Shown piece by piece: positions 4,101 to 25,137 of a DNA stretch of 64,000 nt. This stretch comes from Marsupella aquatica. Lineage: Eukaryota; Plantae; Marchantiophyta. The notes beneath the pieces are model-generated. The model did not search any database, was not told the DNA's origin, and saw only the letters and a list, made by a program, of their open reading frames with translations. Position 1 is the stretch's first letter. Every line of letters starts with the position of its first letter. A program made the position numbers and the translations under genes. Location: positions 20,798,260 through 20,862,259 of the forward strand of contig OZ316897.1 in the NCBI GenBank assembly GCA_973895155.1. The letters run 5' to 3'.

Positions 4101-5526
4101 CGCGTCGATCCTCTTGCGTTTGTCGACACCACAATCCTCGAATAATTGCTCCGCTTCAGAGCATTGGTGTCAAATCTGTCATCAATCTCAACAGTAACTG
4201 TTAAATACCGACACCGAACAATCTCGATCGAAAGATGAAGCTTTCTAAATCGTATACAGCGGCGTCTTTACGCACCCACACGGTTTACATCCTTACGCAC
4301 TGTAATTCCAGAAACTGTTTAATGGGCGAGAGGATCGACGACATAGATAGGATCTATTGTATTAACGGGATTTATGGTACGTCGATTTCTGGATCGAATT
4401 GTAAGAGAGCTTCATGTTTACACAAGTACAAGGTTTAGAGCTTACGCAGTGTAATTAGGACCATTGCTCAATGGGAGTTGGAATCGACGGCAGTGATAGG
4501 ATCGAACGAAGGAACGGGATTTATGGGCCGTCGATGGTGCGTCCCGGGAACGTCCTTGAAAGCCGCCTTGGCACGGTATCTTGCAAAGAACAGTGCCGGA
4601 GTGCCGGTTATGCGGTCGGCCGGGTACCGTTTGGCAGCTTCTCGGAAACCTCGTCGGGAACCTTCAGTTCGGGATATTTTTTAACGTTTTTTAAGATAGC
4701 GAATGACACCTTGTGCCAAGGAGCACATGCTAGTATCTACTTTTATTATATTATTTTTCGCATTTTTAGATCACCCTAATTTAGAAAATGAAGCCAGGAT
4801 GGATCTCTAAGTTTGTTAAAATGCTCACATGTATTTTTGCAAATGGAGATGGACTGCATTTTACTTGCAATGCCACAAAAAATATTCCTACTTAGTCCAT
4901 CTCAATTATGTAGTTTCTGTCTAGGGTCCATGGGAGCATCATTTTCCCGTAATTTAAGATTGATAGTTTCATTCTGGCTAATGGGGTTTGTGGTTAGGTG
5001 AGAACAAGCTTGGCAACCAGTTTTTAGTGACATATCATTCTGGTGTTACCTTATTTAGAAGCCTACTCAGGTTACTTAGTTTAATAAAGATTTTCATATA
5101 TATTTGTATTTCAATTTGCCTTAAGCCACCACTGTCCACCAGGTCCCGGGTGGGAAAAAAGTGCAATTTAATACTTTTTAGAGAACATTATTCACTCATT
5201 TTAGTAACCTGGATCCACCAGGTTTGCTTCAGGGACTATGGCCCTTTAAACAAAGTGTATCTTTTGTATTTATTATTTGAGTTTTGATTTCCGTTTTCTA
5301 GAGTGACCCCCTCGATCTCTAGGTCTATATTTATGTCCCAATCTTGCCCATCCTTTGTTAATATATTTTATTATCCTTATATTCAATATTAAATTGACAT
5401 ATCAAACATGAGGGATACCAAAACCCAAACCCCTATCTTTGCAAGAGTATGAGAAATCCCGCTGAGAGTAAAAAATAAGAAGTTCAACATAATGTCAACC
5501 ATGTGACAACCATTTGTCTTATTTTT

Positions 5527-5664
5527 TGTCGTGCGCATACATATCGCTACACAACATACATCGCTTGTCACATACATCCAGACATAGTCACACTGCCACA
5601 TCACAAATACAAGAGAATGGAATACAAGTGGAACTCATGTCCACACATGTCCAAAACCCACAAT
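5527..5664 (-). repeat. Terminal repeat segment A (outer copy, 138 bp)
   Basis: Matches 5996-6133 with 2 substitutions (tgtc/tatc, cactgcc/cactacc). Confidence 0.92.
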
Positions 5665-5993
5665 AATCTCCATACAATCGGCACAACGATCTCGGTCAAC
5701 AATACCCCATCGATCCCGCACCGATCCGATCACACACGTATGTCAAGCCAACGCACCTTGCACTACTCAAGGAATCCACGTTACACAAGCGGAGCTCACA
5801 GCCACCATAGCCACACTCAAGCTCCTCTCTCTCCAAGGCTCAACATTGAAAGATGACCTTTCAATGCCTCACAAGTGAGAAGTACCCTCTCACACAAACC
5901 TGACAGAACCTTATCGGCTCCAATAGCACTCATACCAAACGTACATACTCTAATAGCACGATATACTACTACACTACTCAGAATGGTGTGACA
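5664..5993 (-). repeat. Terminal repeat segment B (3' copy, 330 bp)
   Basis: Matches 21359-21688 with 2 CpG transitions (ccacgtt/ccatgtt, gcacgat/gcatgat). Confidence 0.92.
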
Positions 5994-5995
5994 AC

Positions 5996-6133
5996 TATCG
6001 TGCGCATACATATCGCTACACAACATACATCGCTTGTCACATACATCCAGACATAGTCACACTACCACATCACAAATACAAGAGAATGGAATACAAGTGG
6101 AACTCATGTCCACACATGTCCAAAACCCACAAT
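5996..6133 (-). repeat. Terminal repeat segment A (inner copy), directly after the polypurine tract
   Basis: Direct repeat of 5527-5664. The minus strand reads PPT AGGGGGGCG-AT-TGTGGGTTTTGG. Confidence 0.9.
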
Positions 6134-6142
6134 CGCCCCCCT
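6134..6142 (-). promoter_or_regulatory. Polypurine tract of the gypsy element
   Basis: Minus-strand AGGGGGGCG, 2 nt before the TG start of repeat A and downstream of the integrase stop. Confidence 0.7.
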
Positions 6143-6306
6143 AGCTGGGAGTAAGGTCCCCTAACTCTAGCTAGCCATGAGTTCTACAAGGTTGATATAC
6201 ACCTTTTTAGGTGTGAAGATCAGGAGGCCGGGTGCAAGTGAGCCCCATCGATCACCTACCTGCAATCCATATCTGCCAAGAGAACACAAATGATAACTAG
6301 TCGGCT

Positions 6307-7656
6307 TCACCGACACTGAGGACACAACCATGATCCACTAGGAATCACCTGCAATGGTGGTGTCAAACATGATATGTGCCATCCTCTAGAACACTTATCA
6401 CAAATCAACATAGTAGCTGCTCCCTGAGCAGATCCACACAACATACATTTCAAGCCAGCACGAACATGTGCCAAGCTTGGATCTACTGTACCATCAATGT
6501 TGGGAAGGTGACATGGTGCACAGTTGCGCACATGATCCTTCCAAACCATACCATCGCGTCCCTTCAACATCAGGACACCAGAAGGCAACACTTCACGCAC
6601 ACGTAAGATTGTCCGGTCTGCGGTCACATCAAGTGTCGTGGGTGCTGTCTGCTGCAAATAAACATAATCACCAAGATGAAATCGTCGAATGCTTGCACGG
6701 TAACCTCCTCCACGAATAGTGGCATACCTCAAAGTATCACGATGTTGGGCAATGGCAAGGTTGTCAAAAGCCATGGGCATCACTCTCTGAAATACCCGTG
6801 CTCTCTCTGAACACACCTTGACCCAAACATCAAGATCATCCAAGTTCACAACTGGTGCAGCATGACGACGAATAGCTGCTGGCAAATCTGGCTCTCTACC
6901 ATAGAGCAAAAAGTAGGGTGAGAAGGATGCAAGTGATGCTTGCCGACTGAAACGGTAGCCAATAGCTAACCAAGGTAGCTGGAGATCCCAATCTCCCAGA
7001 TGACCAACCTGCAAGCCATACTTACACAATCCTCTCTTCACAGTTTGCACAACTCTCTCAGCTAATCCATCTGCCTCAGGATGATCACGAGAGGTAGTGC
7101 GATGATCAATCAGAGCTTGTTCACACAAACTCTCAAACTCTCCACGGAACTCAGTTCCCTGATCAGTCAATACCTCAGCTGGTGCTCCAAAATGACGGAG
7201 TACACGATCCAAAAATGTAGCAGCAACTCCTCCACTGGCTTTATCTGGCAACGCCACTAGCTCAATCCACTTGGAGAAGTGCTCCACCATGACCAAAACA
7301 TACCGATTATGACGTTGGGTAAGAGGTAATGGACCAGCAAAATCCAAACTCCAACGATATCCCAAACCCATGATCGGTAACGGGTGCAACTGGGGAGTGG
7401 GAGCATTAAATGATGCTCTCACTCTGTCACATACCACACACTTAGCTATCAACTGCTGGACATGAGTGTGCATACCACGCCACCAATATTGTGTCTGCAG
7501 CAAGCTGTAAGTGCGCTTCACACCAAAGTGAACCAACTCCTCGTGCGCATGTCGCACCAAATGTACTTGTTGTGATGGTTTTGGTACCACCAACATCCTA
7601 CCATCATGCAGTACTCTCAAAAGATGGTTTCCCTCCCATCGAAACCTCTTGGCTCT
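6307..7656 (-). pseudogene. Gypsy integrase (HHCC zinc finger, DDE core) with C-terminal PHD finger
   Basis: HEELVHFG...CVVC; WSLDFAGP, VLTDQGTEF, ADGLAER. The C-terminal CMLC...ICDKCSRGWHISCL...WLCPQC is a C4HC3 PHD finger. Confidence 0.92.
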
Positions 7657-8074
7657 CTATAGAACCCTGTCACGTTCCTTGGCATCAACACTGCCAACAA
7701 TAGAACTATTGCGCAGATATTCCAACACTCTCACATCATTGTGAATATCTTGCTGTCCAGAAGTTACCTCACCAATATCCACATCTGAAGACTCATCATC
7801 CACTCCATCCAATGAGGTAGAGTCCACAGATCCACTGTATGCTGGCACCCAACAAAGAAAGGCAGATGCATGCCATCCTGGCACCATCTCCTTATCTGAC
7901 TCATCATGCCATCTAGCTCCAGTCTCATCCTGCTGACTGGTACATGGATTGCGGCTTAATCCATCTGCATCCAAGTTCACTTTTCCAGGCCTATGCACCA
8001 CCTGGAAATCATACTCCTGAAACAACAATGCCCATCATGCAAGCTTCCCTGTAAGCTTGTCAGACTCCATTAAC
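7657..8074 (-). pseudogene. End of gypsy RNase H and linker (3' of the copia insertion)
   Basis: KWLMESDKLTGKLA*WALLFQEYDFQVVHRPGKVNLDADGLSR continues ...TDHQPLK from 14688 across the CACTT TSD. Confidence 0.9.
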
Positions 8075-8079: not shown

Positions 8080-8554
8080 TGTTGGGTATTTACTCTTACG
8101 TCTAGGTTAGGTATGACGTGGTTGGTACAACAACGTGGGTTGGTACAACTACGTGGTTAGGTACAACTACGTGATTAGGTACAACTATGTGGTTAGGTAC
8201 AACTACGTGATTAGGTACAACTATGTGGTTAGGTACAACTACGTGATTAGGTACAACTATGTGGTTAGGTACAACTATGTGGTTAGATACAACTAAGTTG
8301 CACACTATATCATAAGAGGCATGTGTGCTTGGAGAGGTAGAACCAAGGCTCATTGTTATGGAGCCACTTGAGAGATAGGGAGAGCGTACACTGTGGAGAC
8401 TCGGTATAGCCGACGGGCTTAGAGTTCAGTAAAGCTCTCTTGTGTGTTCCCGTGGACGTAGCCTCAAGGAGGTGAACCACGTATCTCTTGTGTCGACTAT
8501 TGTGCGTTGGATGGTTCATGGGCTTGCCGTTGCGATCGTCGTCTATGCTCAACA
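8080..8554 (+). repeat. Copia 5' LTR containing an 18-bp tandem array (about 10 units, G(G/A)TTAGGTACAACTA(C/T)GT)
   Basis: TGTTGGG...CAACA; array at about 8104-8295; direct repeat of 14208-14682. Confidence 0.95.
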
Positions 8555-8556
8555 AT

Positions 8557-8568
8557 TGGTATCAGAGC
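8557..8568 (+). promoter_or_regulatory. Primer-binding site (initiator tRNA-Met)
   Basis: TGGTATCAGAGC, 2 nt after the LTR. Confidence 0.93.
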
Positions 8569-9708
8569 ATGCTTGGGAGGTGACGTGTGTTCGTGACGGG
8601 ATTTCATGACGGTTTTTCCAGCGTTGAGTGTTGGTGGATTTTCCAGAGTTCCATCGCATGGAACTTGGAGTTTATGGGCTCAACGGATAGATCAGGGCAA
8701 GAGCTTTCTAACGGTGTGAAGAAATCGTTGAACGGAGCTCGTGGTGCAGAGAGATCTAAGTTTTCGTCGTTCTGGATTTTGTGAAGAAAGTTGGCAATCG
8801 ACTCAGAGGGAGAAGCGTCAAGTGTTTTGACTCAACGGAGAGATTGAGGCAAGACGATTGTTTTTGAGTCCGGGATTGGCTCTTTGATGCAAAGAGGAAG
8901 GCTAAGCAAAATCAATTACCTTGTTGGACTTGGTGACGGCACCAAGTGCAATTGATCAACATTCATTGTTGACAAGGTACCATTTTTTTCTCTTTGAAAA
9001 ACTGATTCGAAATTGGCTATGGCAATTGAGAGAAATCTGTCATTTTTACCAATTTTTTTCTCCCTCGTTCTTTCCTCGTTTTGGGTGCTTCTTATATCGA
9101 TCTTCATCGCCTCGGAGTCTAGTTTCCAAATCTGAAATCGGATCTTGATTTCGTCAAAACCCGAGTGAGATATCTTGCGTTTGGTGTCGAGGGGTACATT
9201 CTGCCGTGTGTATTTTCTGCGCGCGCGACCAGATTTCGACGACGAAAGGTGGTAGGTGGTTTTGGGGGTTCGAGGACACATGTCAGCCCCTCGATTGTTC
9301 TTCCAAAATTCCCACAGGGCCTGTACAAGGGTCATAGAATATTCCAAAAAACCAGAGAGCTATTTTTTGACCGTCCGACAAAGATTTCATCCACCGAACG
9401 GTAACTTTTTTGGTTATTTTTCGGCGAGGTCATAGCCATTGAAGTTGGCAATGCAGCGCACCAATCACATCGCAATTCCGACAACGGGTTGTACTTGGTA
9501 TTTCGGTTATTCCCTGAGGTGGTCAAAACGGGGGAGTTTCCCAAGGTTTTACCCACCTCGACCAAAATTTGAATAACTTTTCCGTCAAATTTCGATTTTG
9601 ATTTCGGTTTTCAGTATTGGACTCCTAGCTTTGTGGGCTACGCGGCGGTGTTGAGTTTCGAGTTTTTTGAGAAGTTGTGAAAAACAACATTTTTTGTGAC
9701 TTTCTCAT

Positions 9709-10731
9709 ATGAGTGATTCGGAGGAGTTTTTTGAAGACGTGGAACTTGAAGCACGAGGATCACCGCGGAGGTTTCAGGGGCAGAGAGAGGAGCAGGAGGA
9801 AGAGCACGTGACACCGATACCATCACCGGTGCGGCGTGTGGTGGAGGAAGCAGTACTACTACCGGAGCTCACGGTAAAGAAGAAGATGGGGACTTTCAAG
9901 CTTGGGGGACCCAAGTATGAAGTGACAAAGTATGATGGGCGCTCTGACTACTTGCTATGGGAGAAGCAGGTGAAGGGAGTGCTTTATGCGTCAAGGATGG
10001 GCCAACTGCTGAGCCCTCGTGAAGACGATGTTGATGAGAAACAATGGGACCGCATGCAGGAGCAGGGAGTGTGGTGTGTTACACTCTATCTCATGCCTCC
10101 CATCATCAAGCAGTTGGGTGCACATAAGGATTGCATGTCCTTATTTGCGGAATTGCAGAGCAAGTATCACCGCAAGGAGTTGTCGAACCGGCTCTACACT
10201 TCCTACAAACTGATGAGTTTCAGGATGAAGGAATCTGGTACGAAGTTGCAAGACCATGTGGATGCTTTCAACGACATGGTTGTTGACTTGAAAAACCTTG
10301 GGAAGACTTTGAATGATGAGACGAAGGCTCTGCAACTTCTTAGTTCATTGCCTCCATCTTACCAGTCCCTATCACGAGTGTTGTTGCATCATGATAGGGA
10401 TACCATTTCATACAATGACGTGGTAAGTTCTCTGCTTAGTGATGATCTTCAGCAGAAGATGCACATCACGTCACAGCCTTCATCATCTGGTGCTGCCCTC
10501 AATGTTAACCGTGGGAGGAGTATGCAGCGACCAACTGGGGACCGTAGAACCCAGTTTAGATCTAAATCCAGATCTAAGTCCAAGGGTAAATCCCCTCAGA
10601 GGAGGCAGGTGACATGTTGGAAGTGCAACCAAGTTGGACACTTCAAGCAAGACTGTAAGGGAAAGGCAGCGGAAACTTCATCGGCAAATGTGGCTAGGGC
10701 TGATGGAGAAGCTGATTTACTCAATGATTAG
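9709..10731 (+). CDS. Copia Gag (UBN2-type, CCHC knuckle CWKCNQVGHFKQDC)
   Basis: KYDGRSDYLLWEKQV, LLSSLPPSY and zinc knuckle; ends at an in-frame TAG. Confidence 0.9.
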   Translation: MSDSEEFFEDVELEARGSPRRFQGQREEQEEEHVTPIPSPVRRVVEEAVLLPELTVKKKMGTFKLGGPKYEVTKYDGRSDYLLWEKQVKGVLYASRMGQLLSPREDDVDEKQWDRMQEQGVWCVTLYLMPPIIKQLGAHKDCMSLFAELQSKYHRKELSNRLYTSYKLMSFRMKESGTKLQDHVDAFNDMVVDLKNLGKTLNDETKALQLLSSLPPSYQSLSRVLLHHDRDTISYNDVVSSLLSDDLQQKMHITSQPSSSGAALNVNRGRSMQRPTGDRRTQFRSKSRSKSKGKSPQRRQVTCWKCNQVGHFKQDCKGKAAETSSANVARADGEADLLND

Positions 10732-10878
10732 TATGTTTTATGAAGCCGGGGGTATGCCCTGTGCACGTCATCTAGGAGAGCAGATGATGTGTGAATTCTT
10801 GATTGTGCTTGCTCTTTTCATATTTGTTACATTCGTGAGTTTTTTAGTTCTTACTCTATTTCAAACGGTTCAGTTCTG

Positions 10879-13800
10879 ATGGGAAATGATCACTCCTGTC
10901 AAATTGAGGGAATTGGGTCTGTGAAGATTCAAATGTTTGATGGCGCTGTGCGCACAGTGTCCGGAGTCAGGTATGTACCTGGCATGCGTAAGAATCTGAT
11001 TTCACTCGGTGTGTTGGATTCAAATGGTCATCAATGGAGCGTTATTGATGGTGAACTTCAAGTCAGGTCGGGAGAGACAATGATTTTGAAGGGGAGTAGA
11101 CAAAAGAATTTGTATGTGTTACAGGGCAATACTGTATGTGGAGAGGCCAATGTAACCAAGTCTCACGAGGAGATGACTCAACTGTGGCATTCACGGCTAG
11201 GCCACATGAGTGAGAAGGGTTTGGCTATCTTACGGAAGAATGGACTCATTTCTGATTTGCAATCTTGTAAATTAGAGTTTTGTGAGCATTGCATTCTTGG
11301 AAAGCAGCATCGTCGTGCTTTTGGTGTTGGAACTCATCGTTCCAAAGCGGTTCTTGAGTACATACATAGTGACGTGTGGGGTCCATCCCCGACTCCCTCA
11401 CACTCTGGAAAGTTGTACTATGTATCATTTATTGATGATTACTCAAGATTTGTGTGGATTTATTTCATGACGCATAAGTCTGATGTCTTGTCCATTTTTA
11501 AGAAGTGGAAGGCCCAGGTGGAGAATCAGACTGGAAACACGATCAAGTGTTTGGATACAAGGGTGAAGAGTCTGAGGTCAGACAACGGCGGGGAGTACAC
11601 TTCAATGGAATTTGAAGAGTACTGTTCAGAACAGGGGATAACTCGCCATCTCACCACAGTTTATACTCCGCAGCAGAATGGTGTCGCTGAGAGGCTCAAT
11701 CGGACACTGTTGGAGCGGTCACGGAGTATGTTGAGCCAATCAGGTTTACCACAAGAATTTTGGGCAGAAGCTGTCAATACCGCAGCTTATTTGGTAAATC
11801 TTTCTCCTTCTAGTGCTATCAATTTCAAAACGCCGTTTGAGATGCGCTATAAGCGGCAAGCAGACTATCATGGCTTGATAATTTTTGGAAGTGATGCATA
11901 TGCTCTCACACCAAAGCAGAATAGGACCAAGTTGGATCCTACCTCCAGGAAATGTGTTTTTCTTGGGTACCAGAGTGGTGTGAAAGCCTATAGGCTATGG
12001 GATCCTATTGCCTGTAAGCTCGTTGTTAGTAGGGATGTTTCCTTTAATGAATCCAGATTATTGAAGGAGGGGGAGAATACTCAGGTCTCCCGTACTGACA
12101 AAGGAAAATCTCCTATCCCGGATCTCGTTGAGGGGGAGATTGGTTATGAGGTGCATGACCGGAGAGAAGGAGTTGCTCCAATTATGGAGCTGGTTCCTGT
12201 GCCAGAGGAACCAGAGGAGTTTGTTGATGCTGGTGAGCAGCAAGTGGATGTTGTTGAGCTTCAAATTGTACCAGCACACGCAGATCAACCGGAGTCATCG
12301 GCTAGAAGAACATCTGGTCGCACTGTACGCGCTCCATCAAGGTATGGACAGTGGGTTGATTCATCTCAACTGCAAGAGGATGATTTTACAGCTGATGATG
12401 AGGGTGATGCGTTAATTTTGGAAGAAGGAGAACCTTCTTCATTTCATGAGGCAAGTGCTTCAAAGGAGAAGCAGAAGTGGACTGCAGCAATGCAAACGGA
12501 GATGCAGTCACTAAAGGACAACAAAACTTGGGAGCTTGTTAAGCTGCCTAAGGGTCAGCAAGTGGTGGACAGCAAGTGGATTTACAAGCTGAAGGATAAT
12601 TCCATAGGAGGTGGATCGAAGGTCTACAAGGCTAGATTGGTAGCAAAGGGATTCACACAAGAGAAAGGTGTGGATTACAATGAGGTCTTCTCACCAGTTG
12701 CTAAGTACTCTACAATACGACTATTGTGTGTACTTGTTGTAATGTTTGGTCTGCTCCTAGATCAGATGGATGTTGTCACAGCTTTCCTCTATGGCACATT
12801 GGAAGAGGTGATCTTCATGAGACAACCGCTAGGTTTTGTGAAGAGAGGACAGGAGGAATTGGTTTGCAGATTGCTGAAATCCTTGTATGGGTTGAAGCAG
12901 TCACCAAGACAGTGGAACAAGCGGTTTGACGATTGGATTCGGTCACAAGGTTTTCACAGAAGTGTATTTGACCCTTGTGTGTATTTGAAACCGGTGAAGA
13001 ATGTTGTCTTTGGGTTCATTGTTTTAGTACTTTATGTGGATGACATGCTAATTGCAGCCAAGGATAGGTCTGAGATTGTTAAGCTCAAGGCACTGCTTAG
13101 TGCAGAGTTTAAGATGAAGGACTTAGGGCCAGCTAAGAGGATTTTGGGTATGGAGATCACTAGGGACTTGGAGGCTGGCAAGCTATGGTTGACGCAGAGC
13201 AGTTATGCGAGGAAGGTAATTGCAAGGTTCAACATGGAGAATAGCAAGCCAGTAAGTACCCCGTTGGCTCCACACTTCAAGTTATCATCAGCGTTCTGTC
13301 CTACGGATGACACAGAGAAGGGGTTGATGTCAAAGGTTCCATATGACAAGGCAGTGGGGAGTCTCATGTATTTGATGACTTGCACTAGACCTGATCTTGC
13401 CATGGCTATGGGCAAGGTGAGCAGGTACATGTCGAATCCAGGGAAGGTACACTGGGAAGCAGTGAAGTGGATTATCAGGTACTTGAAGGGTACCGTGGAT
13501 CATGGTCTTTTATTTGATGCGAATGCAAAGAATGCTAGATCATTGATTGGCTATGTAGATTCTGACTATGGACAAGATTTGGACCGAAGGAGATCAACAA
13601 CAGGATACGTGTTCACACTTGGCGGTGGATGCATAAGTTGGAGGTCTACTTTGCAGAAGTGTATTGCTCAGTCTACTACAGAAGCGGAGTATGTTGCAGC
13701 TGCAGAAGCAGCAAAGGAAGCGATTTGGTTGGATAGACTTATCACTGAAATGGGATTGCCACAGGGGAATGTGAAGCTCCATTGTGATAGTCAAAGTGCG

Positions 13801-14016
13801 CTCCACCTTGCTGTGAACCAGGTGATGGACAGCAGAGTGAAGCACATTGACGTCAGGTACCATTTTATCAGGCAGGCTGTGTCTGATAATTTGTTTGAGC
13901 TAGTCAAGATTGATGGTAAACTCAACCCGGCTGACGCATTTACCAAAGTGATTCCTTTGGAGAGTTTCTCTAGACACCGTGACGTATTGCAGGTTTTGCA
14001 ATTGCATCACAAGTAG
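10879..14016 (+). CDS. Copia Pol (C-terminal part of protease, GAG-pre-integrase, integrase, RT, RNase H)
   Basis: LWHSRLGH, IHSDVWGP, LRSDNGGEY, QQNGVAER, YKARLVAKGF, LYVDDML, YVDSDY, KHIDVRYHF; intact 1045-aa ORF. Confidence 0.95.
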   Translation: MGNDHSCQIEGIGSVKIQMFDGAVRTVSGVRYVPGMRKNLISLGVLDSNGHQWSVIDGELQVRSGETMILKGSRQKNLYVLQGNTVCGEANVTKSHEEMTQLWHSRLGHMSEKGLAILRKNGLISDLQSCKLEFCEHCILGKQHRRAFGVGTHRSKAVLEYIHSDVWGPSPTPSHSGKLYYVSFIDDYSRFVWIYFMTHKSDVLSIFKKWKAQVENQTGNTIKCLDTRVKSLRSDNGGEYTSMEFEEYCSEQGITRHLTTVYTPQQNGVAERLNRTLLERSRSMLSQSGLPQEFWAEAVNTAAYLVNLSPSSAINFKTPFEMRYKRQADYHGLIIFGSDAYALTPKQNRTKLDPTSRKCVFLGYQSGVKAYRLWDPIACKLVVSRDVSFNESRLLKEGENTQVSRTDKGKSPIPDLVEGEIGYEVHDRREGVAPIMELVPVPEEPEEFVDAGEQQVDVVELQIVPAHADQPESSARRTSGRTVRAPSRYGQWVDSSQLQEDDFTADDEGDALILEEGEPSSFHEASASKEKQKWTAAMQTEMQSLKDNKTWELVKLPKGQQVVDSKWIYKLKDNSIGGGSKVYKARLVAKGFTQEKGVDYNEVFSPVAKYSTIRLLCVLVVMFGLLLDQMDVVTAFLYGTLEEVIFMRQPLGFVKRGQEELVCRLLKSLYGLKQSPRQWNKRFDDWIRSQGFHRSVFDPCVYLKPVKNVVFGFIVLVLYVDDMLIAAKDRSEIVKLKALLSAEFKMKDLGPAKRILGMEITRDLEAGKLWLTQSSYARKVIARFNMENSKPVSTPLAPHFKLSSAFCPTDDTEKGLMSKVPYDKAVGSLMYLMTCTRPDLAMAMGKVSRYMSNPGKVHWEAVKWIIRYLKGTVDHGLLFDANAKNARSLIGYVDSDYGQDLDRRRSTTGYVFTLGGGCISWRSTLQKCIAQSTTEAEYVAAAEAAKEAIWLDRLITEMGLPQGNVKLHCDSQSALHLAVNQVMDSRVKHIDVRYHFIRQAVSDNLFELVKIDGKLNPADAFTKVIPLESFSRHRDVLQVLQLHHK

Positions 14017-14207
14017 AGTTTTCTTAAACATTCATTGTAATTACTGATATATGCTCTTCCTCATTCCTATGTATTAGGCTACGGCTTAGTTCTGGTTTGC
14101 TCTAGTTAGAGAGGGAAACCGGTTTGGTTTCTGTCCAGAACTTCCCGCTGAGGGATCATATACATTGGCAGTATTACTCTCCCCTAGACCAGAGTCAAGG
14201 GGAAGAT

Positions 14208-14682
14208 TGTTGGGTATTTACTCTTACGTCTAGGTTAGGTATGACGTGGTTGGTACAACAACGTGGGTTGGTACAACTACGTGGTTAGGTACAACTACGT
14301 GATTAGGTACAACTATGTGGTTAGGTACAACTACGTGATTAGGTACAACTATGTGGTTAGGTACAACTACGTGATTAGGTACAACTATGTGGTTAGGTAC
14401 AACTATGTGGTTAGATACAACTAAGTTGCACACTATATCATAAGAGGCATGTGTGCTTGGAGAGGTAGAACCAAGGCTCATTGTTATGGAGCCACTTGAG
14501 AGATAGGGAGAGCGTACACTGTGGAGACTCGGTATAGCCGACGGGCTTAGAGTTCAGTAAAGCTCTCTTGTGTGTTCCCGTGGACGTAGCCTCAAGGAGG
14601 TGAACCACGTATCTCTTGTGTCGACTATTGTGCATTGGATGGTTCATGGGCTTGCCGTTGCAATCGTCGTCTATGCTTAACA
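14208..14682 (+). repeat. Copia 3' LTR
   Basis: Preceded by PPT AGTCAAGGGGAAGAT; followed by TSD CACTT. Confidence 0.95.
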
Positions 14683-14687
14683 CACTT

Positions 14688-16040
14688 AAGAGGCTGATGA
14701 TCAGTGATCAAGGTGAAGGGGTTACCAAACAAGTAGCAACGAAAGTGTGCAAGAGCCCACACTACTGCTAAACACTCTCCCTCATAAGAGCTATACTTAG
14801 CCTCTACTGAATTGTTTGATCTAATGGCATAAGCCACAACAAACTCATTTCCCTCATCATCCTTCTGAGTCAACACTGCTCCAAGTCCTACTCCACTCCA
14901 ATCAGTGTGTAGCTGAAATGGTCTGCCTGAAATGGGTCTTCTCAAAATAGGGGATGATGCCAACCTTTGCTTCAACTCCTGAAAGGCATGCTCCTGGTCA
15001 TCACCCCAAATCCATTCCTGATCCAACTTAGTGAGTATGGTCAAAGGTTTAGCAAGCTGGCTAAATCCTTTAACATACCTCCTGTAGTAGCTCGCCAATC
15101 CCAAGAATGCACGAACTCTACTCACATCAGTAGGACAAGGAATCTGTGTAATGGCCTCCAGTTTAGTCTGCTGTACACCCAATCCCCCTGGATATATGGT
15201 GTGGCCCAAATACTCAATGTGGTCTTGGAAGAACTTACACTTGCTAGGATGGAGCTTCAACCCATGTGCTCTCAATCTCTCCAACACAGTCTGCAAGTGC
15301 TGTTGATGTTCTTCCACAGTAGAAGAATAGACCAAAATATCATCAATATAACATCTGACAAAATCCAAACCTGCAAGGATTCGATCCATGACTCTCTGAA
15401 ACTCAGCTGGTGCATTCTTCAACCCAAATGGTAAGAATAACCATTGATACAAACGATCTTTGCCATAAGAATCAATCCCCCAGAATGCTATCTTGGACCT
15501 TTCAGCATGCCTAATTGGAAGCTGATGGTATCCTGCCCTCAGATCCAATGAACTGAAAACCTTTGCATGCCCCACAGCATCAAAGATCTCCTCAGGTGTG
15601 GGCATGGCATATCGATCAGATTTTGTCTGGCGATTAATAGGTCTGTAATCACCACACATGCGCCTATCTGTGTAATTGCCATGCACATCCTTCTTGGCTG
15701 GCATCACTGTGGCAGATGCATACTCCCCATATGAAATCTCTACCAATCCAACCTCCAACAAATCTTGAGTTCTGCTTTGAATCAAAGCTCTCTCCATGTC
15801 ACTATAACGGTATGGTCTATGAAAGATTGGCGCATCACTAGCCAATTCAATCTGAATACCAGGGCCCTTCAATGTCCCCAAATCCTTCATGCTGAATGCA
15901 AAACAATTCCAATAACTTTTCAGGAATCGATGCATGCGACGTCTCTCCTCCCCTGTTAACTTAGGGCCAAGCTGTGGTTCCCAACTCTCCACCAAATCCC
16001 TAATATCTCTTTGTAGGGTAGAAGAGATAGCCGATGATTG
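14688..16040 (-). pseudogene. Gypsy reverse transcriptase and RNase H (5' of the copia insertion)
   Basis: RMCGDYRPIN, SSLDLRAGYHQ, LPFGLKNAPAEFQR, YIDDILV, LHTDWSGVGLGAVL, ITDHQPLK. Confidence 0.95.
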
Positions 16041-17303
16041 CTATTTAGCAGTAGATTGAGCAGTCCCTTCCTGCTCAACAATCTGTCCAGCCGCCAATCC
16101 TGTCATAGGTCCATGGACTGTCTGCTCGCCCCCAGCTGTGGTCAATACTGTCTCAGTGGACCGCAAGCTCACCAAGGGATAATCAGTAATTTCGGCAGAG
16201 CGCATCCGCAACTGTTTAGCTACTCCCAAGCTGATAATCCAAGTCAAACAATTCAAATCCATTGCTTGACCAAGAACCTGGCGCCGCAAACCCTCTGACA
16301 CAGAGGCAACTGCAGTGGTGCCAGTCAAAAATCCCATAGCACGCTTTCTCTCATCAGCAGTAGGCTCCACTAACTGCTGGAGAGCTGTGTCCCATATAAG
16401 TCCAGGGCCACCTGCTCTGAATGCATATGAAGCAGAGTGGCTTACAAGAGTGGGTAATGCACAACGTGGGCACCCAACTGCATTGACCATTGCCAATGGA
16501 GGTCTATCAGGTTGGGTCACACCCTGTGCACGACGCCCTGGATCCAAAATATCATCCACCACTAAGGCTGGTGAGTGTGGAATACTGTCAAATGCGCGCT
16601 TCAGCACCTCACATGGGATCAAATTAGTCCACCACAAGCGTGGACGATGTGCACGAGAACCCACACGTGTAGCATCCAATAACATAGCAGGTCCAATCCA
16701 AGACCTCACCTGGTGAACACTGGCAACAATCCGACTATGATCATCACCTAACAATGGCACATTCTCCAAAATGTATGCTGGAGACTGTGTCTGATGTAGC
16801 TGGAGATGACGCAGCACCTGTAACATCTCCCAAAACAATGCAGAGCGTGGATCATGAAGTCCATGCCTAATGCCAGCTCTAGATTGGCCTTGACATGGCC
16901 AACCAGCAATCACCAAATCAATGGGGCCAACACGATGTAGATGATCCGCCCCCAACAATGAAATATCAGTAGGTAGTGCATGCTGATAACCACGAACAGC
17001 ATCCACTGGCAGCAACTGTGGATGTCTATCCACCAACATAGCCACATGTCGCAATGAGACCCTCCGTGTTGTCTCATCTGTCTCCACATACAAATAACGA
17101 CGCACAGGAATTCCTGCCTGAAGAATAGTAGCCAATCCAGTGCTAATCCCACCAAAAAGATCCAACAAACAAATACTCTCCGGTGGATACTGCCAAGCAA
17201 TAGGAGTGGTATCCAATGGTGAAAGAGTCACAGGTCCATCTGCAAGAGACTGCTCTGCTCCTGACTGTGGTGTAAAAGCATGACGCCATGCATCATGTAC
17301 CAA
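16041..17303 (-). pseudogene. DNMT3-like C5-cytosine DNA methyltransferase domain within the gypsy polyprotein
   Basis: Motif I LDLFGGISTG, II YVETD, IV IAGWPCQGQS (catalytic PC), VI ILENV, VIII RAHRPRLWWTNL, IX/X ERKRAMGF...RRQVLGQAM; same frame as PR and RT. Confidence 0.9.
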
Positions 17304-17315
17304 TCATGCTGCTGC

Positions 17316-19028
17316 CTATGGCAAGGCTTGTGCAGTGCCCCACACTGGTGGCACAACACTACCAATAGGTAATCCTCGCATGATGTGCTCCTCATGAGAC
17401 TCCTCCAATGGTGGAACATCGGCTGCATGTGCAATACCCTGAATCAAATCATCAGGTCCAGCAATTACACCACTGAATGCTGCCAAAGACAATGGTGTGG
17501 ATTTAGGGCCTCCCACAGGTCCACTAAATCTCACTGGCAATTTGCTCAATCGAGCATCTCCTGACTGCCAATCAGGTCTATATGACACTGATTCCTCCCA
17601 AAAATCAAGAATAAATCCCATGGGGTAGAGCACTGTACATCCCACCAACACATCATATGACTCTGCCTTAGTCAGAATAGCTCGCGCCTGTATCTGTGAG
17701 CTATCTGTGGTATGACCTTCCTGAATTCTCAAATCAAGTGGTCTCCTAGTGATATGCTGTGTAGGTGTAGGTCCCCCCAATGAAGTCTGAATGGGAAAGG
17801 GACAATCCTCCAAATCCTCTGGACGCAATCCCAATCCACGTATGGCAGACTTCCCCAACATCAAGGGCTGAGCACCAGTATCCAATAACACTCTCTCTGG
17901 CTGGTATACTGCTCCAGAAGGCCCAACTAATCGGAAGATACCACTCCGATTATCCAATGACACAACACTAGGTTTAAACCTAGTTCTCTCAAATGCAGGG
18001 CGTGCTGGTAAATCCACCAACCTCGTTGTTGCTGCATGCCATGTCTCACTAGTAGCAGTAGGTGGCATGGTCTTCACTGCATCAACACTGCAAGTTGCTT
18101 CTGCATGGGAAACAACCACTGGAGTGTCCTCACAGAGTGTAGCTGCCAATCTGAACACTTCTGCAGGACCAACTCCCAAGTTCAGCATGTCTGTCGCTGA
18201 AAATAATGGGGTGCGTACTATGGCAGTAGCCGCCCCCAACAAGGTACCTGTCATCCCTGCTACATCACTACCTGATTCTGCCAACTTACCCACATCAGGG
18301 TTTGTCCGAACCGGGTTCATAGAGGCAGTCTGAACTGTCTTTGACAATGTAAAAGACTGAGGAAGCTTTGTCTGCCGACGTGCATCCCCCCTTTGTGGAT
18401 CTAACTCCACTACTGCTCCTCGGGGCTCAAGAGCTTTGGCTACCCCACGTGTCAAAGCTGCTGATGCATCAATATGTGCAGTGCCACACATGAATCCCAT
18501 GGTGGCAAGGTCTCCATCAGCTCCATAAGATGTGGAAGGACCATGGGATGTGGAAGGTCCATAGGATGTAGATGCCCCATCACCAAAATTAGGTCTCACC
18601 TGGGAACTTGCCATGGCAGCTAGTTGTTGCTCCAATTGAGCAATCTTAGCATCCTTTGGATCTATGGTTACAGCAGGGGCAGCGTCACCTCCCTGTCTCC
18701 CTGCATGTGGCATGCCACGACCACGTCCACCACCTCTACCTCCTCCTCCTCTTCCCTGATCATGTGTACGGGATCCTCCTCTCCGTAACTCAGGGTGGAG
18801 TGAGAAACACCTATCCTTGGTGTGTCCAGGAGCTCCACAGTGATCACACTGTCGCTGATCAGGCGTTGATGCTCTCCCTGATCCTCTATGATCTGGACAA
18901 TATCTTTGTGCATGATCCCCACCACAGGTCCAACATCCTGACTGCTGTCCAGGATAAGAGGGCACAGGTCTTTGGCTGGTAGACTCTCGTGCAGTAGGCT
19001 TCTCCCTCTGGCTCTTCCGTGCAGTAGG
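17316..19028 (-). pseudogene. Gypsy Gag C-terminus (two CCHC knuckles) and aspartic protease
   Basis: CWTCGGDHAQRYC, CDHCGAPGHTKDRC; protease VLLDTGAQ...YDVLVG. Confidence 0.88.
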
Positions 19029-20030
19029 CTATGGTGTGGATGTAGATGCAGCCTTTGGTGCTTCCTTGGCAAATCCGGAAGTCACCACCTTCTCATTCAC
19101 CATATTGAGCTCAATGCGCTCAGAAAGGGTGAAAACAACTGCTAATGTGGGATCTGCATCCCTAAGCAGAGTGACATCTCTCACTCTGCGTCGCAATTCT
19201 CTGTCCAAAATTGCATACCAAAACTGGACTGCCTGAGCCTCTGTCACTCCCTTGGTGACAGTGATCAATCTGCGCATACGTGTGTATGCCTCACGTAGGC
19301 TCTCTCCAATCTTGCATTGGAACTCCTAAAGACCCTTCAACTTATCAGTTCTCACACCCTGATAGTTCTGCTTCAGTACCTCAAAGAATTCCACCACAGG
19401 ATTAAATGCTGGCGCAACTCCAGTTCCTATCACAATCACACCGGCAGGAGTAGTGGTGGATGCTGCTGGAGTGCTGCTGGTGGATGGTGTGCCACTCTGG
19501 CTAGTGCTGCTAGAAGAAGCAGCAGCTGTGGCAATGGGTTGGGCAGCCGCACTAGTGCCATAGGTGATGGACACGTAATTAGGCGACCAATGCTGCCTCC
19601 ATGCATCAATCTCAACCAAATGAGCCTTCCGAAACTCATGGTAGTCATCCATGGGTGGCCCCTCCAAATGCTGGAATAATCCCTTCCATGCCATGAAAGG
19701 GGTAAACAACGTGACGTTACGCAATGTCTGCATATCGCACCACGTATCAAACTCCTGGATGAAGTTATCCAGATCAATTATGCCAACTGCATCAGAGTAT
19801 CGTCGTGGGCCCTTTGTAGCCCCGTACATCTCGTCCATATCCCACAACAAAGGTGCAACCACCTGATGATGAGGAGAACTGGTCACTGAGTCCTCATCAT
19901 AATCACTGTCTGAAGCTGCACTGCTGACTGCTACCAATGCCGCTGGCCGAAACTGTGCCCCACTCCGAGTGAAACCGGTCTGTCGTCCATCGGGTAATCC
20001 AGCAGCACCAGAAGAATCCGTGGTGACCAA
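19029..20030 (-). pseudogene. Gypsy Gag N-terminal/capsid region
   Basis: Same frame as the downstream polyprotein, with TAG stops at 19326 and 19029; DLDNFIQEFDTW and FQCKIGESLREAYTRMRRL are gag-like. Confidence 0.7.
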
Positions 20031-20588
20031 CCCTAACCTAATCTATGTGCTAACCCTAAGGGCAATCTATCCCTGTCAGCACCACAAGCACTCACCATGG
20101 TGTGTTGGGCATCACTCCAACATCACCAAGAGAGAAATACACAGCACACTAGAATGTCTAGTTGCAAACCCGGATCACTCCTATGGAATCAAGCGCCCAC
20201 ACGAAACTAACATGGCGCATAAACAGGAAACATGTGTGAAGAGGATCCAGAAACAAGAATGGATACCATTCAACTCTCCACACAAAAGCAAATGCAAATC
20301 AATATGACAATGTGCATAAGGTTCAAGGAAGAGCCTTCATAATAGGCTTCACAATGGCACTCCAATGTTGTAGATGAGAACCAAGGCAAAATTGGTTCAA
20401 TCTGTGAGTCTAGATGGACTCAGAAGTATCAAAAACCCTAGAACAGCCTCTGATTTGGCCTAGAATAGGCCTCTAAACAAACTGGGAAGTGTATAAAGCC
20501 CCCTGGCGCTTGAATCTAAACAACAAGTTGTCAAAGCTTGTGTGTACACAAGGTGGGATGAGAACTTGCCATTTAAGCGCTCGTGGCT

Positions 20589-20757
20589 GGAAATAGCCCC
20601 GGGATGGGTGACCTCCTCGCGCTCGATCTTGTGCCTCCCCTCGCGCTCACGGCCCGGAATAGCCCCGGGATGGGTGACCTCGACCTCGCGCTTGCCTGCA
20701 CTCGCGATGGGTGACTTCGCGCTCGTGGTTGGGAGCACTTTTGGGATGGGTGACCTC
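20589..20757. repeat. Dispersed GGGATGGGTGACCTC motif (4 copies) in the gypsy 5' leader
   Basis: GGAAATAGCCCCGGGATGGGTGACCTC-like sequence twice, plus two shorter GATGGGTGAC copies. Confidence 0.7.
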
Positions 20758-21000
20758 ACGCGTCGCCTCGCGCCTGACCCCAAAAACAACTACTTCCTTC
20801 ACGAAAAGCTCCCGAAAACTGTCGATTTCCTTCATGAAAAACGCAGCCCTTCCACAGAATTGGCAGCAGCTTGATTCAACACCTTTGACCCTCGTTTCTT
20901 TCACTAAAACGATGATACCGTCGCACGGGGCATTGGCAGCTCCGTTCCTTCAGGAAAAGAGCCGTCGCTTCACCTGCGCCTTGCCAACATCGTCCAACAA

Positions 21001-21088
21001 TAGCCGGCAATCAGATTTGAAGCCCCACAGTAGCCGACAATCAGATCTGAAGCCTCACAGTAGCCGGCAATCGGATCTGAAGCCTCAC
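21001..21088. repeat. 30-bp tandem repeat x3 (TAGCCGGCAATCAGATCTGAAGCCTCACAG) in the gypsy 5' leader
   Basis: Visible tandem units; gives SRQSDLKPHS x3 in ORF 20711-21361. Confidence 0.85.
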
Positions 21089-21358
21089 GGATCGACTTCC
21101 ACTGTCCAACATCTACTCAACATTCGCTTTCCTCCACGAATCATCAATCGACCTCCAACTCAAAACCTGTCACCAATCACAGATCTGTACATCGATCGGG
21201 AAGCAGGCCGATCGGACAACAACGATACAGGTCAAGATACCAACGATCTGTTCGATAACAACACACAATCCGAGCTACCACGAACCATCAACAACTCAAT
21301 CAATCGAACTTCTGTCCGCACAGTCCGTACATCAGATTTCGAATGTGATCTTTCAATG

Positions 21359-21688
21359 TAATCTCCATACAATCGGCACAACGATCTCGGTCAACAATAC
21401 CCCATCGATCCCGCACCGATCCGATCACACACGTATGTCAAGCCAACGCACCTTGCACTACTCAAGGAATCCATGTTACACAAGCGGAGCTCACAGCCAC
21501 CATAGCCACACTCAAGCTCCTCTCTCTCCAAGGCTCAACATTGAAAGATGACCTTTCAATGCCTCACAAGTGAGAAGTACCCTCTCACACAAACCTGACA
21601 GAACCTTATCGGCTCCAATAGCACTCATACCAAACGTACATACTCTAATAGCATGATATACTACTACACTACTCAGAATGGTGTGACA
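21359..21688 (-). repeat. Terminal repeat segment B (5' copy); with 21357-21358 it reads TGTCACACC...GGAGATTACA on the minus strand
   Basis: Direct repeat of 5664-5993; segment A is absent beyond it. Confidence 0.92.
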
Positions 21689-22868
21689 TTTTGCTTTCAA
21701 TGCAATGAATTTTTATTTCTAAGTTTCCTTTCTTTTTGTGTGGCACAAAATTTCAGAGTCATAAAGTTGGATAGGATCTTCATTTAGTTTAGACTGTTAA
21801 GTGGCAATAGGACCCTTTGTCCATGGAATGCATTTTTATTGATAACTTTGACTGGAGGGATAAGTTGGTTTATTTAATTATTAAGATCCCACAGAATGCT
21901 TTTTGTGCAGTAGTCAAAACAAATATGTACATAAATCTCATGCAAGTTTAGATCATATTCCAGCAAAGCCCGGAACAATTAAAGAGCCTCACTGAGGAGA
22001 GAGTATCTAAAAGGCAAGAAAATCCAATTAAGACATTGAAAGTCTAGGAAGGCCAGAAAGCCCCAAAAAAACCAGGAGCCAAAAACCTAGCAAGATTGTA
22101 GTAATAGTTAGGCTAATCCTAGTCACAAATTTGATTAGGTTCCCATATGGGCTATTGTTTTTTAATCTTTTGAAGTGAGGCAGAGTGACAAGCCCCTTCA
22201 TATGGGCAATAAGAGCCTCTCAAAATTTGAGCTGTAGCCCTTGTTTTTGTGGAGATTTATGGCCCACAATGCTCAGTAGACAGGATGTTACTTTTTTCAA
22301 ACATAGCTCGCGGTGTATATGATATGGAAACTTGTTAGATCTGATTTGATGTGGCTACTAGGAGGGGTATGATCCCTCGTTAACATCCACTTTTCCTTTG
22401 TTGCATTTGCCACCTCATTTTCTAGTTTGGCTGTTTGAACTGGATCTTTTGTTTGGGTTCATTTGAAAGGGCCTTTTATCAAACTGAGAGAAAAACCCTA
22501 AGAGCATCCGCACCGGACAGCCATTCAAGGCGCCCAACAGTGAAAATGCAGGGATTCCTTTGGGAATCCACTTTTGGACTCCCCACCGGAACACAACAGG
22601 GTTCCACTAACACCCAGGGCCCGCCGAAACTCGCTCCTGCCACACCACTTCTGCCCTACAGTAGCGGCCCTGGCTTTGCCCGCCAACGGACCTCCTGTTT
22701 GGCTGAATGGTCGAGATTGAAGGTCGCAGCTGGATCTGACGGACGGAAGGAGGCGATGCTAGGCCCAAAATCCATGAACACATTTGATGATGACACCTGC
22801 CCGAGCTCCTTGTGGTGCTACAGTTTAGGGACTGTGTAAACTGTAGTCGCTGTAGTTGCGGGATCACC

Positions 22869-23872
22869 ATGGCTGGAACCAATGCTCGGGGGCAAAATTT
22901 TGCTAATGCAGAGTTGAAGCAAGTGTGCATGTCCTGGGTGAACATTTCTGAGGACCCCATCGTAGGCGTAGGGCAGAAAAATGCAGCATTTTGGGATCAT
23001 GTTGCTGCTCACTACAACCATCACCGACCAAAGGGGACTCAAGAGAGGGGAGCGAGATCATTGGAAAGCAAGTGGTAGGACCTGAAACGTGATGTTGCAA
23101 AATTTTCGGGTGTATATAGTGCTGTAGAGGACCTGAGGTTGTCGGGAGCAAATCAGGAGGACACTCTACACAAAGCTCTGGAATTATATCAACAAAAGAA
23201 TGCAAAGGGGAAGGAATTTGCCTTCATAGACTGCTGGTACATGCTCAAAGACTGCCCTCGATTTTCGCAGACAGTGGAGGACATGGCATCCAAGGGGAAG
23301 GGCAAATCTCAGAGCAAGGGAAGGACAAATCAAATGTGCCTCCAACACCACATTCGCCAACATAAATCATTAACCAGCATGGTGGAGGTCTCTCAATAGT
23401 AGATGGAATGGAATTCAGCTCAAATTCACAGCAGAGACCGATTGGCAACAAGTCTACCAAGAAGCTTAAGTCTGAGGAGTGCTCTTTTCGCATTGCAGCT
23501 TATGCTCAACGGGATATGGCAGCCGCCAATGCCAAACGGATGAAGATATTGGAGGATCAGAGCCTACCCAACCTGTTTAGTATGAGAGCTGCAGATGTAG
23601 ACGACGAATGCAGGGAATTCTTTCGAGCTTGTAGAGCCCGAGAGCTTACCAAATTCGCACAGAGAATTGAACAAGAAGAGGCTGAGGCTGCTAGAGCTAG
23701 TACTAGACGTAGTACATCAAGTTCCTCACCGGAGGTGCCAATTAGTGAGCAGCCTGTTGTTCCAGAATTAGTCCAGACTCCAGAAGCCACTGGCCTTGCT
23801 GGTAACAAGAATTTCTTCATGAGTCAACTGGAAGTGGAACAAGCACTAGGGAGGGGAAGTCCAATTGAGTAA
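22869..23872 (+). pseudogene. Harbinger ORF1 (Myb/SANT-like, NAM-associated type)
   Basis: RGQNFANAELKQVCMSWVNISEDPIVGVGQKNAAFW...RSLESKW*, FAFIDCWYMLKDCPRF, RPIGNKSTKK; one stop plus a frameshift. Confidence 0.82.
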
Positions 23873-24080
23873 GATCCAGGACATTTCGTAGCTCATAGCT
23901 CAATTTTCCACTGCAGATTAACTAATGTGTCTGTCCAATTTTGGAAGTTTAGACCAGATTTCAGAATTCACATTGTACATGCAGAAATGAGATCAGAATT
24001 TGCTCAGAGAATTGTGAAATTGTGATGTTGTGTCCATTTGAATTCAACTTTGTATGTACAATCTTTGGTGCTGAACTAAA

Positions 24081-25137
24081 TCACTACATCTGTCCAACAT
24101 AATCGAATTGATGACCTCTACCTTTGAGAGCCCACAAATGCTCAACTAGATCATTTCACAGCATGTAGTGAGTGTCTGAATCCTCAATGACTCGAGTTGC
24201 AGCCAAGTACTCTTTCCAGTCACTAGTTGTGAGTCTCTCTCCTTGCCTATTGCTTCCTTGCTGTTGTTCCCGTTCTTGTGGCAAATTCTCTAGTCGCTCA
24301 TCATTTATTATCATATTATGTAAAATTACACAGGCAAGAAGGTTGTCTTTGATCACAGCCTGGTTGTAAATCCTCACAGGATTCCGAATAATGCTAAAAC
24401 AAGCTTGCAACACACCAAAAGCTCTCTCCACATCCTTCCATGCACCTTCTTGGCATCTGGCAAACCACTTTCTAGCTTCACCCTGTGGCAATGCTATTGT
24501 CTGAACAAAAATTGACCAATCCTCTCCCCTCATTGATTTCCAGTTGTCTCTCCATGTCTTCCTTGGTAGGCTGCCTCACGTATTTTTCCTAAAAAACCTC
24601 TCGAATGGCTCTGCAGAATCTCTTCAGAGAATCCATAGTTGTGGTTTCTCCAATGCGGCAATACTCATCCATGGCATCTGCTGAAACACCAAGTGAAAGC
24701 TGTCTCAATGCTGCTGTAACTTTCTGAATTGAAGATAGGCCCTTCACTCCAGCAGCATCCCGTTTCTGGACAAAATAATCGTCAGCTTCACACACTGCAT
24801 CATGGATTTTCCAGAAAAGATGTCTTCTCATTCTATATCGCCTTCTGAATTGAGCATCTGTGTACACTGGATTCTCTCGAAAATAGTCCTTCCAAATTCT
24901 CTCATGCCCAAGCTCTCTGTCTCGATCAATGTTCTTGCTTTTTCCAGGCAATGATCCACCTCGTTTCTTCCTATTGTGTCGCCTGTAGAACTCCATGAGA
25001 GCCAAAGGTCCAGAAATAGTGGTGTGCTCCCACCACGTCTGTTCCTGATCCAGCTCTTTCAATTCATCTCGAATTTGCTGATTCAATTGAGCCCGCCACT
25101 CGTCATGAGAGGTCATTATCTCCAAGCAATGCTGCAA
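24081..25137 (-). pseudogene. Harbinger (HARBI1-like) transposase with internal deletion of the DDE core
   Basis: FRRRYRMRRHLF, QKVTAALRQLSLG, DEYCRIGETT, WSIFVQTI, KDVERAFGVLQ, ACVILHNMI; the GSIDC...LADGIY segment is absent near 24520. Confidence 0.88.

Follow-up and report, generated by a model that had tools for sequence, protein, structure and literature searches.

Organization of the element and its setting

The 64-kb window (the whole stretch of DNA analysed, to which all positions refer) contains a retroelement that spans 21688 to 5527 on the minus strand (Table 1). Judged by its domains and stop codons, this element is a defunct member of a bryophyte Ty3/gypsy family. The gypsy set of protease, reverse transcriptase (RT), RNase H and DDE integrase is complete, with the protease under the Pfam cutoff in the window copy. 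Gag, protease, a DNMT3-like cytosine methyltransferase (DNMT), RT and RNase H share one frame, 14625-20042 (-), in which stops fall at codons 239, 338, 909, 913 and 1334. The original prediction for this DNA had placed the DNMT in frame with Gag, protease and RT, in the order protease-DNMT-RT, and this much of the architecture holds. It had overlooked the integrase-PHD region behind a nested copia element, the split repeats and the self-priming site.

The element had also been assigned to a land plant, and its surroundings agree. An intron-containing host gene for a UDP-galactose transporter 3-like protein lies at 26310-28750 (-), and one of its exons, which lies 10 kb away, shares 92% identity with Calypogeia fissa, against at most 81% with any other named species listed; the host is therefore very likely a liverwort. 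Bacterial contamination of the window was considered and rejected. At 1883-2206 (-) there is an exon of an FMN-reductase/flavodoxin-like host gene.

Table 1. Features of the gypsy element, in the order of its own strand
Feature	Position	Strand	Remarks
4-bp target-site duplication, 5' side, AAAA on element strand	21689..21692	-	homopolymer
Terminal repeat A1, 330 bp, begins TGTCA	21359..21688	-	2/330 mismatches vs A2
Predicted self-primer, likely transcript 5' end; 12 nt complementary to primer-binding position	21538..21549	-	
Primer-binding position, directly after A1; complementary to stretch inside A	21348..21359	-	
Gag region, from the Met where homologs begin; two CCHC-like knuckles	17901..19838	-	premature stops 19326-28, 19029-31
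Aspartic protease core (LLDTGA)	17754..17900	-	PF13650 E 0.0048, under cutoff; over cutoff in homologs P0182
Two premature stops (17316-18, 17304-06) between protease and DNMT, apparently private decay	17304..17318	-	P0001 (76% identical) aligns unbroken
DNMT3-like C5 methyltransferase (folded ~16209-17186) plus unstructured tail; last domain of ORF1	16044..17303	-	
Conserved in-frame TAG-CAA-TCA, type I (UAG-CAR-YYA) readthrough context	16035..16043	-	
Reverse transcriptase and RNase H, first part of ORF2	14688..16040	-	PF00078, PF17919, PF17917; Ty3 RT best solved match, E 3.5e-67
Nested Ty1/copia interrupting ORF2	8080..14682	+	LTRs differ 3/476; 5-bp duplication CACTT
ORF2 remainder: integrase zinc finger, DDE core, C-terminal PHD finger (6313-6447)	6307..8074	-	PF17921, PF00665, PF00628
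Premature stop in ORF2 remainder	7657-59	-	
Polypurine tract adjoining B1	6134..6146	-	
Repeat B1	5996..6133	-	99.3% identical to B2
Internal B1/A2 junction, predicted integrase cut site	5988..6003	-	CACGACA-NN-TGTCA in family
Repeat A2	5664..5993	-	
Terminal repeat B2, ends GCACGACA	5527..5664	-	
4-bp target-site duplication, 3' side	5523..5526	-	

The integrase C-terminus is formed by a PHD finger, and a chromodomain is not present there. The nearest solved relatives of this finger include CHD4, ATXR5, DPF3, KDM5B and PHF21A, several of which have PHD fingers that read unmethylated H3K4. We found no match to a tyrosine recombinase in the element, where rve and H2C2 matches and 4-bp duplications occur instead. 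On the strength of the DDE integrase, the duplications and the missing recombinase match, we rejected an identity with the DIRS order.

Homologs align in one open stretch across the four stops upstream of the DNMT, and at the stop at 19031 about 97% of the depth in contigs of sequencing run X1 differs. From these comparisons, all four look like decay of the window copy. Because of these stops and the premature one in ORF2, the window copy cannot make the enzyme. Within the element (5527-21688), mismatches between the repeats are limited to 3 of 458 positions, although its coding part carries five premature stops. The copy may therefore have been moved in trans after it had already broken.

CpG observed/expected is 0.35 in the element, 0.49 in the nested copia and 0.27-0.77 in relatives, a measure that is not diagnostic. 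The leader (20043-21358) stands at 0.83, versus 0.22-0.42 for the coding regions. In the repeats of old copies, C-to-T change affects 27% of CHG, 22% of CG and 7% of CHH sites. Neither CpG depletion nor mutation context separates the element's own enzyme from host methylation.

The DNMT3-like domain

The DNMT lies in a 420-codon stop-to-stop frame at 16041-17303 (-). The C5-methyltransferase motifs I, IV, VI, VIII, IX and X occur in linear order, with the catalytic Cys, as DLFGGISTG (17162), GWPCQ (16904), ENV (16766), RAHRPRLWWTNL (16655), ERKRAMGF (16352) and LGQAMD (16274). Among Pfam profiles, PF00145 matches the frame at 43.2 bits (cutoff 22, E 4.5e-11) and is the only domain it carries, so that the DNMT is without a reader domain of its own. 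The best match by sequence among solved structures is DNMT3A (E 1e-11). A predicted model of the domain (mean pLDDT 75.9) also finds DNMT3A, both with Foldseek (E 5.8e-17) and by structure alignment (VIA; Z 25.6, rmsd 2.9, 270 aligned residues). Z scores are 22-25.6 for DNMT3A/B/C, 22.6 for M.MpeI and 21.7 for M.HhaI, making DNMT3 the nearest fold by a modest margin. The catalytic Pro-Cys (Cys137), Glu180 and the Arg-x-Arg pair (Arg220/222) vary little or not at all among 28 aligned homologs of 33-80% identity. Taken together, the profile match, the model and the conserved residues identify 16041-17303 as a DNMT3-like C5 cytosine methyltransferase domain, in line with the motifs and the DNMT3 kinship that had been predicted. 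Chance similarity was rejected.

To gauge selection, we compared the DNMT between loci. For the window against five loci (L002, L018, L005, L038 and L040), dN/dS is 0.14-0.21, at dS values of 1.7-2.7 that are near saturation. It is 0.12 for L038/L040 and 0.17 for L076/L079. These ratios resemble those of Gag and protease and are higher than that of RT. Values of 0.39-0.71 among near-identical moss copies are as expected of decay following insertion. By these ratios, the methyltransferase domain is under purifying selection between lineages. We rejected a captured passenger gene as an explanation, since the domain is in frame with Gag, protease and RT and under selection; the earlier view of an integral domain is thereby upheld. 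In intact copies, the conservation of the catalytic residues suggests that the enzyme is probably an active 5mC methyltransferase.

Relatives and their spread

Named species with DNMT relatives are Calypogeia, Marchantia polymorpha, Riccia sorocarpa and three species of Sphagnum, at up to 66% identity over nearly the whole query. Many annotated M. polymorpha proteins are members of this gypsy-DNMT family, and the protein matches listed include none labelled Klebsormidium. A metagenome scan gave 455 confirmed stretches, 80 of which were kept as loci for comparison. In run X1, 15,515 contigs aligned over 5.4 kb, a depth that does not equal copy number. Viral contigs yielded only 17 distant phage-type methyltransferases, with E values of 4e-15 or weaker; the DNMT tree contains only element and phage enzymes.

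Among prokaryote genomes, the search returned a single true element (L098) plus four weak matches. L098:1-9285, an open-frame member of the family, sits in an uncultured-cyanobacterium bin. It is probably a eukaryotic contig binned in error, and the same probably applies to P0031.

A conserved stop between DNMT and RT

We compared the region between DNMT and RT in the 55 informative loci, i.e. those of the 80 examined in which the end of the DNMT and the start of RT are both present. In 50 of them, an in-frame stop lies 17-24 codons before the RT anchor. Most of these 50 belong to one moss-type family and several are the same insertion across assemblies, and hence independent stop-bearing lineages number only about six. 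The stop is TAG in 35 loci and TAA in 15, and the next codon is CAR in 48 of 50, compared to a background after TAA/TAG in these loci of 3.4% for CAR and 0.28% for CARYYA. UAG-CAR-YYA is described in the accessible parts of PMC3542737 as the type I readthrough motif, used by tobamoviruses among other plant viruses. The full CARYYA hexamer is found in the window (CAATCA), L005 (CAACCA), L038/L040 (CAGTTA) and L098 (CAATCA), and codes three different residues there (Ser, Pro and Leu). L042 and the large moss family (CAACCC) are one base off. Of the five loci without the stop, L036 and L070 are frameshifted, L057 is a stop-less copy, and L076 and L079 represent a distant stop-less lineage.

L098 has 1162 and 1047 open codons with TAG-CAA-TCA as the sole stop between them (DNMT identity 47%). 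The closest homolog ends at the same residue as the window's DNMT frame. Among 25 hand-picked long raw-ORF homologs, 22 end 96-163 residues past motif X; in the remaining three motif X was not matched, and the one that was scanned gave no RT match. In contigs covering 15990-16095 from four sequencing runs that contain the window's own family, no difference of at least 3% was listed at 16035-16043, with variation at the neighbouring positions 16029-16031, 16033, 16034, 16051 and 16055; as contigs drop rare variants, this result shows the common state only. In an RT tree (23 rows, midpoint-rooted only), the nine stop-bearing rows make up one side of a 98/99 branch.

From this pattern, the stop at 16041-16043 is almost certainly programmed rather than a product of decay. 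The frame had been expected to be broken by point-mutation stops alone. Decay would account for the four upstream stops; the stop at 16041-16043 is a conserved trait of the family. Since the conserved stop follows the DNMT, ORF1 comprises Gag, protease and DNMT, with UAG-CAR-YYA before RT, and the single Gag-protease-DNMT-RT polyprotein of the original prediction has to be given up. We think it very likely that Pol is made by readthrough of the stop.

Two other accounts of the stop were weighed. That one continuous Gag-protease-DNMT-RT polyprotein is made and every stop is a point mutation is true of distant relatives in which DNMT is fused to RT without a stop (L076/L079, P0152, P0154/P0182), and is stated for the Klebsormidium element in the peer-review file of PMC5890265, as far as accessible. 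Retention of the stop in 50 of 55 loci, with no listed variant in the window's own family, and its position as the sole stop of the otherwise open L098 make this account hardly credible here. Alternatively, the stop may truly end ORF1, with Pol produced through re-initiation, splicing or a second promoter. The ATG 6 nt past the stop in the moss family, together with its imperfect hexamer, fits such a scheme, as does TAA in 15 of 50 loci, and some of the gene models annotated in Marchantia and Sphagnum (P0124, P0128, P0130, P0135 and P0153, as protein models) continue into RT or integrase. However, ORF2 is kept in phase with ORF1 in all stop-bearing lineages, and CARYYA persists even though the residue it encodes differs (three in all). 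The first downstream Met has no conserved position, falling at codon 36, 48, 3, 117, 5 and 5 in six loci, which argues against re-initiation; in the window, L005 and L038 it falls past the conserved W-x-P motif of RT. A true terminator is thus improbable, and readthrough remains the preferred account. The stop-less fusions and L057 indicate that Gag-level DNMT is not needed in all relatives.

RNA folding gave a weak hint of a stem-loop 3' of the stop. In all six junctions folded, a 5' arm at about +10 pairs with a 3' arm near +100, with z scores of -1.2 to -3.6 versus dinucleotide shuffles. Against a codon-preserving null, only two of eight junction folds were clearly better, and control windows scored equally well. 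An alignment fold of the junctions returned no consensus structure.

Split repeats, internal junction and predicted self-priming

The repeats are laid out as A1, body, polypurine tract, B1, 2 nt, A2 and B2. The same layout is found in L062, L074, L076 and L078, where L074 and L078 are one insertion, and L076 and L074 are separate lineages. All four start with TGTCA and finish with CACGACA or a near match, and each lies between 4-bp duplications that are not homopolymers. The B1/A2 junction equals two element ends joined by 2 nt (CA-NN-TG). In a scan of 82 sequences, the junction motif was present at B1/A2 in the window and in L002, L022, L038, L062, L074, L076, L078 and L098.

The bases following A1 are complementary to a stretch within A over 12 nt in the window, 17 in L062, 15 in L076 and 13 in L098, and the letters of the complement differ by lineage. 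As a control, none of 500 30-mers reached such a complement length in the window, L062 or L076. L074 (12 nt) and L078 (8 nt) have a complement to A2 only. The predicted self-primer in L062 and L076 lies, by eye, about 30 nt past a TATA-like box. By eye, no tRNA-type primer-binding site (PBS) was seen after A1, and the 64-kb window holds no tRNA gene. At 21538-21562, the predicted self-primer follows its own complement within A, the two forming a short hairpin, and a like inverted repeat is visible in L062 and L098.

Based on these features, we rather favor a cycle in which the transcript would begin inside A1 and prime itself Tf1-style, RT would build a cDNA whose true LTR, present at either end, is B+A, and the cDNA ends would be joined and then opened by integrase at the internal CA-NN-TG junction, giving A1-body-B1-A2-B2. 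Of 21 loci that have a 5' A, representing 17 distinct flanks, not one has B ahead of it, and hence the integrase cut would have to be one-sided. A joined circle would hold two junctions, and a symmetrical cut fails to explain the absent 5' B.

Copies of the form A-body-B, lacking A2-B2, were seen at L024, L036, L058 and L072, with a 4-bp duplication that is exact in L024 and L072 and has one mismatch in L036 and L058. These copies could be due to B1-B2 recombination or to integration of a one-LTR form.

A proposed role for the methyltransferase

The explanation that we find best overall, and towards which we lean slightly, is that of a leaky-stop gypsy element in which the DNMT is made at the Gag level, packed, and likely to methylate new cDNA. 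Ribosomes would mostly stop after the DNMT and occasionally read through, yielding plentiful Gag, protease and DNMT at one common level but little RT and integrase. Because the DNMT closes ORF1 before the leaky stop, the enzyme would be packed in the particle in bulk: fused to Gag, it would enter the particle, where the protease would free it beside the new cDNA. This cDNA would be the likeliest substrate, with about even odds that the enzyme acts chiefly on it, inside the particle or shortly afterwards. The PHD finger of the integrase would then steer insertion according to the state of the histone H3 tail, and the new copy, methylated before its arrival, would blend into silent chromatin.

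The same architecture could instead serve an enzyme that, once freed, works on host chromatin or on integrated copies within the nucleus, as a self-limiting brake or by silencing in trans. Gag-level production would leave a large excess of enzyme for this purpose, a brake of benefit to the host is raised as a possibility by de Mendoza et al. (accessible parts of PMC5890265), and the C-to-T changes at CHG, CG and CHH sites in old repeats are what any nuclear methylation would give. Nonetheless, we consider it unlikely: the domain has no reader of its own, the PHD finger is on the integrase, beyond the stop, and the usual route into the particle is fusion to Gag. Retention of the domain as a DNA-binding or structural part, e.g. 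to hold the internal junction or the ends of the cDNA, while transferring few or no methyl groups, would suit the odd split-repeat cycle of DNMT lineages with and without the stop, and the Klebsormidium enzyme was inactive in yeast. Yet human DNMT3B likewise failed in that assay (both results from the accessible parts of PMC5890265), and Pro-Cys, Glu and Arg-x-Arg are conserved across homologs of 33-80% identity, making a non-catalytic role rather improbable. Base composition does not decide between these rivals and methylation of cDNA in the particle.

Comparison with known elements

Retrotransposon-borne cytosine methyltransferases have been described previously in dinoflagellates and algae, according to the accessible parts of PMC5890265, and the predicted resemblance to the Klebsormidium case is borne out. 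That source describes for KnitGypsy-Dnmt3 of Klebsormidium nitens, as we see in the window element, a gypsy coding region that contains an unrearranged DNMT3-like domain without introns and under purifying selection, and DIRS-like split repeats with gypsy domains. The host there is an alga and here a land plant, and the KnitGypsy-Dnmt3 DNMT is said to share its ORF with RT and RNase H, whereas in the window element a readthrough-type stop is conserved between them. As this stop breaks the DNMT-RT frame, we regard the window element as a variant of the KnitGypsy-Dnmt3 kind, not a member. The main text of PMC5890265 does not mention a PHD finger, and its accessible parts do not mention self-priming or an internal junction for KnitGypsy-Dnmt3, all of which are seen or predicted in the window element. 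The KnitGypsy-Dnmt3 enzyme gave no methylation in yeast, a result called inconclusive by the authors; SymbioDIRS-Dnmt3 methylates CG in yeast, and methylation of cDNA was proposed earlier for Symbiodinium elements (PMC5890265, accessible parts). The DIRS order, including SymbioDIRS-Dnmt3, has in common with the window element the A1...B1-A2-B2 layout and a DNMT3-like domain; what sets the window element apart is its DDE integrase, its TG...CA ends and its 4-bp duplication.

Type I readthrough in tobamo-, beny- and pomoviruses uses the same UAG-CAR-YYA with the downstream frame in phase (accessible parts of PMC3542737); here it would occur in a retrotransposon, after protease and DNMT. Our literature search found no description of CARYYA-type readthrough in retrotransposons. 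SIRE1 uses a UAG-CAR-YYA motif before its env-like ORF.

In Tj1 and in Tf1/sushi/Tcn1 elements, as in the window element, the PBS is complementary to a stretch of the 5' repeat (PMC4600332 and PMC6317226, accessible parts). According to the same sources, Tj1 needs an in-frame stop upstream of Pol, which lies directly after Gag rather than after a DNMT. Tj1 has ordinary LTRs, a 5-bp duplication and no DNMT, in contrast to the split repeats, 4-bp duplication and DNMT found here, and Tcn1 elements have a chromodomain where the window element has its PHD finger. EpiLTRs of Cymbomonas and Euglena likewise combine an LTR element with a DNMT and a chromatin-reader domain, but their DNMT is sister to DNMT4 and is accompanied by DAM and a chromodomain (bioRxiv 10.64898/2026.05.21.726589, accessible parts). 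The available text of that preprint names 'streptophytes (Gypsy-DNMT3)' as a distinct earlier case, without land plants or bryophytes.

An opinion paper holds that transposons encoding a methylase do not occur in 'land plants, such as tracheophytes', having been lost on land (PMC6338049, accessible parts). Our search of openly accessible papers found no description of a land-plant Gypsy-DNMT3 or of a stop between DNMT and RT, and the accessible parts of PMC8616336, 10.1101/363937 and PMC8557442 make no mention of a bryophyte gypsy-DNMT family. What appears to be new here is the conserved readthrough-type stop between DNMT and RT in a land-plant Gypsy-DNMT3. Though the window copy is dead, the dN/dS ratios and protein matches indicate that the family is selected and present in a model liverwort. 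With many M. polymorpha proteins in the family, the role of the enzyme is testable in a genetic model plant. The conserved stop predicts as much enzyme as Gag, a rate of readthrough that can be measured, and cDNA that is methylated before integration, and the split repeats together with the DDE integrase predict an unusual integration intermediate. More tentatively, and with clear doubt, one may picture a liverwort/moss clade in which a virus-type leaky stop loads active DNMT3 at capsid level, cDNA is methylated before insertion and integration occurs by way of the internal junction. Were this true, the element itself would, where abundant, write part of the methylation of its host genome.

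Other repeats

A second architecture, RT-RNase H-DNMT-integrase(-PHD), occurs in P0155, P0156, P0158-P0161 and L080:573-3431 and forms its own branch in both trees. Elsewhere in the 64-kb window, a repeated long-ORF family with no convincing Pfam match occupies 41900-45000, 53768-57533 and 61887-63597, two of its copies being direct at about 83% identity and one inverted at 98% over 1700 nt. A zinc-knuckle ORF lies at 58998-61517, and pieces of Harbinger-like transposons (PF04827, PF14303) are found with LINE-like zf-RVT frames at 22800-24600 and 50695-53107.
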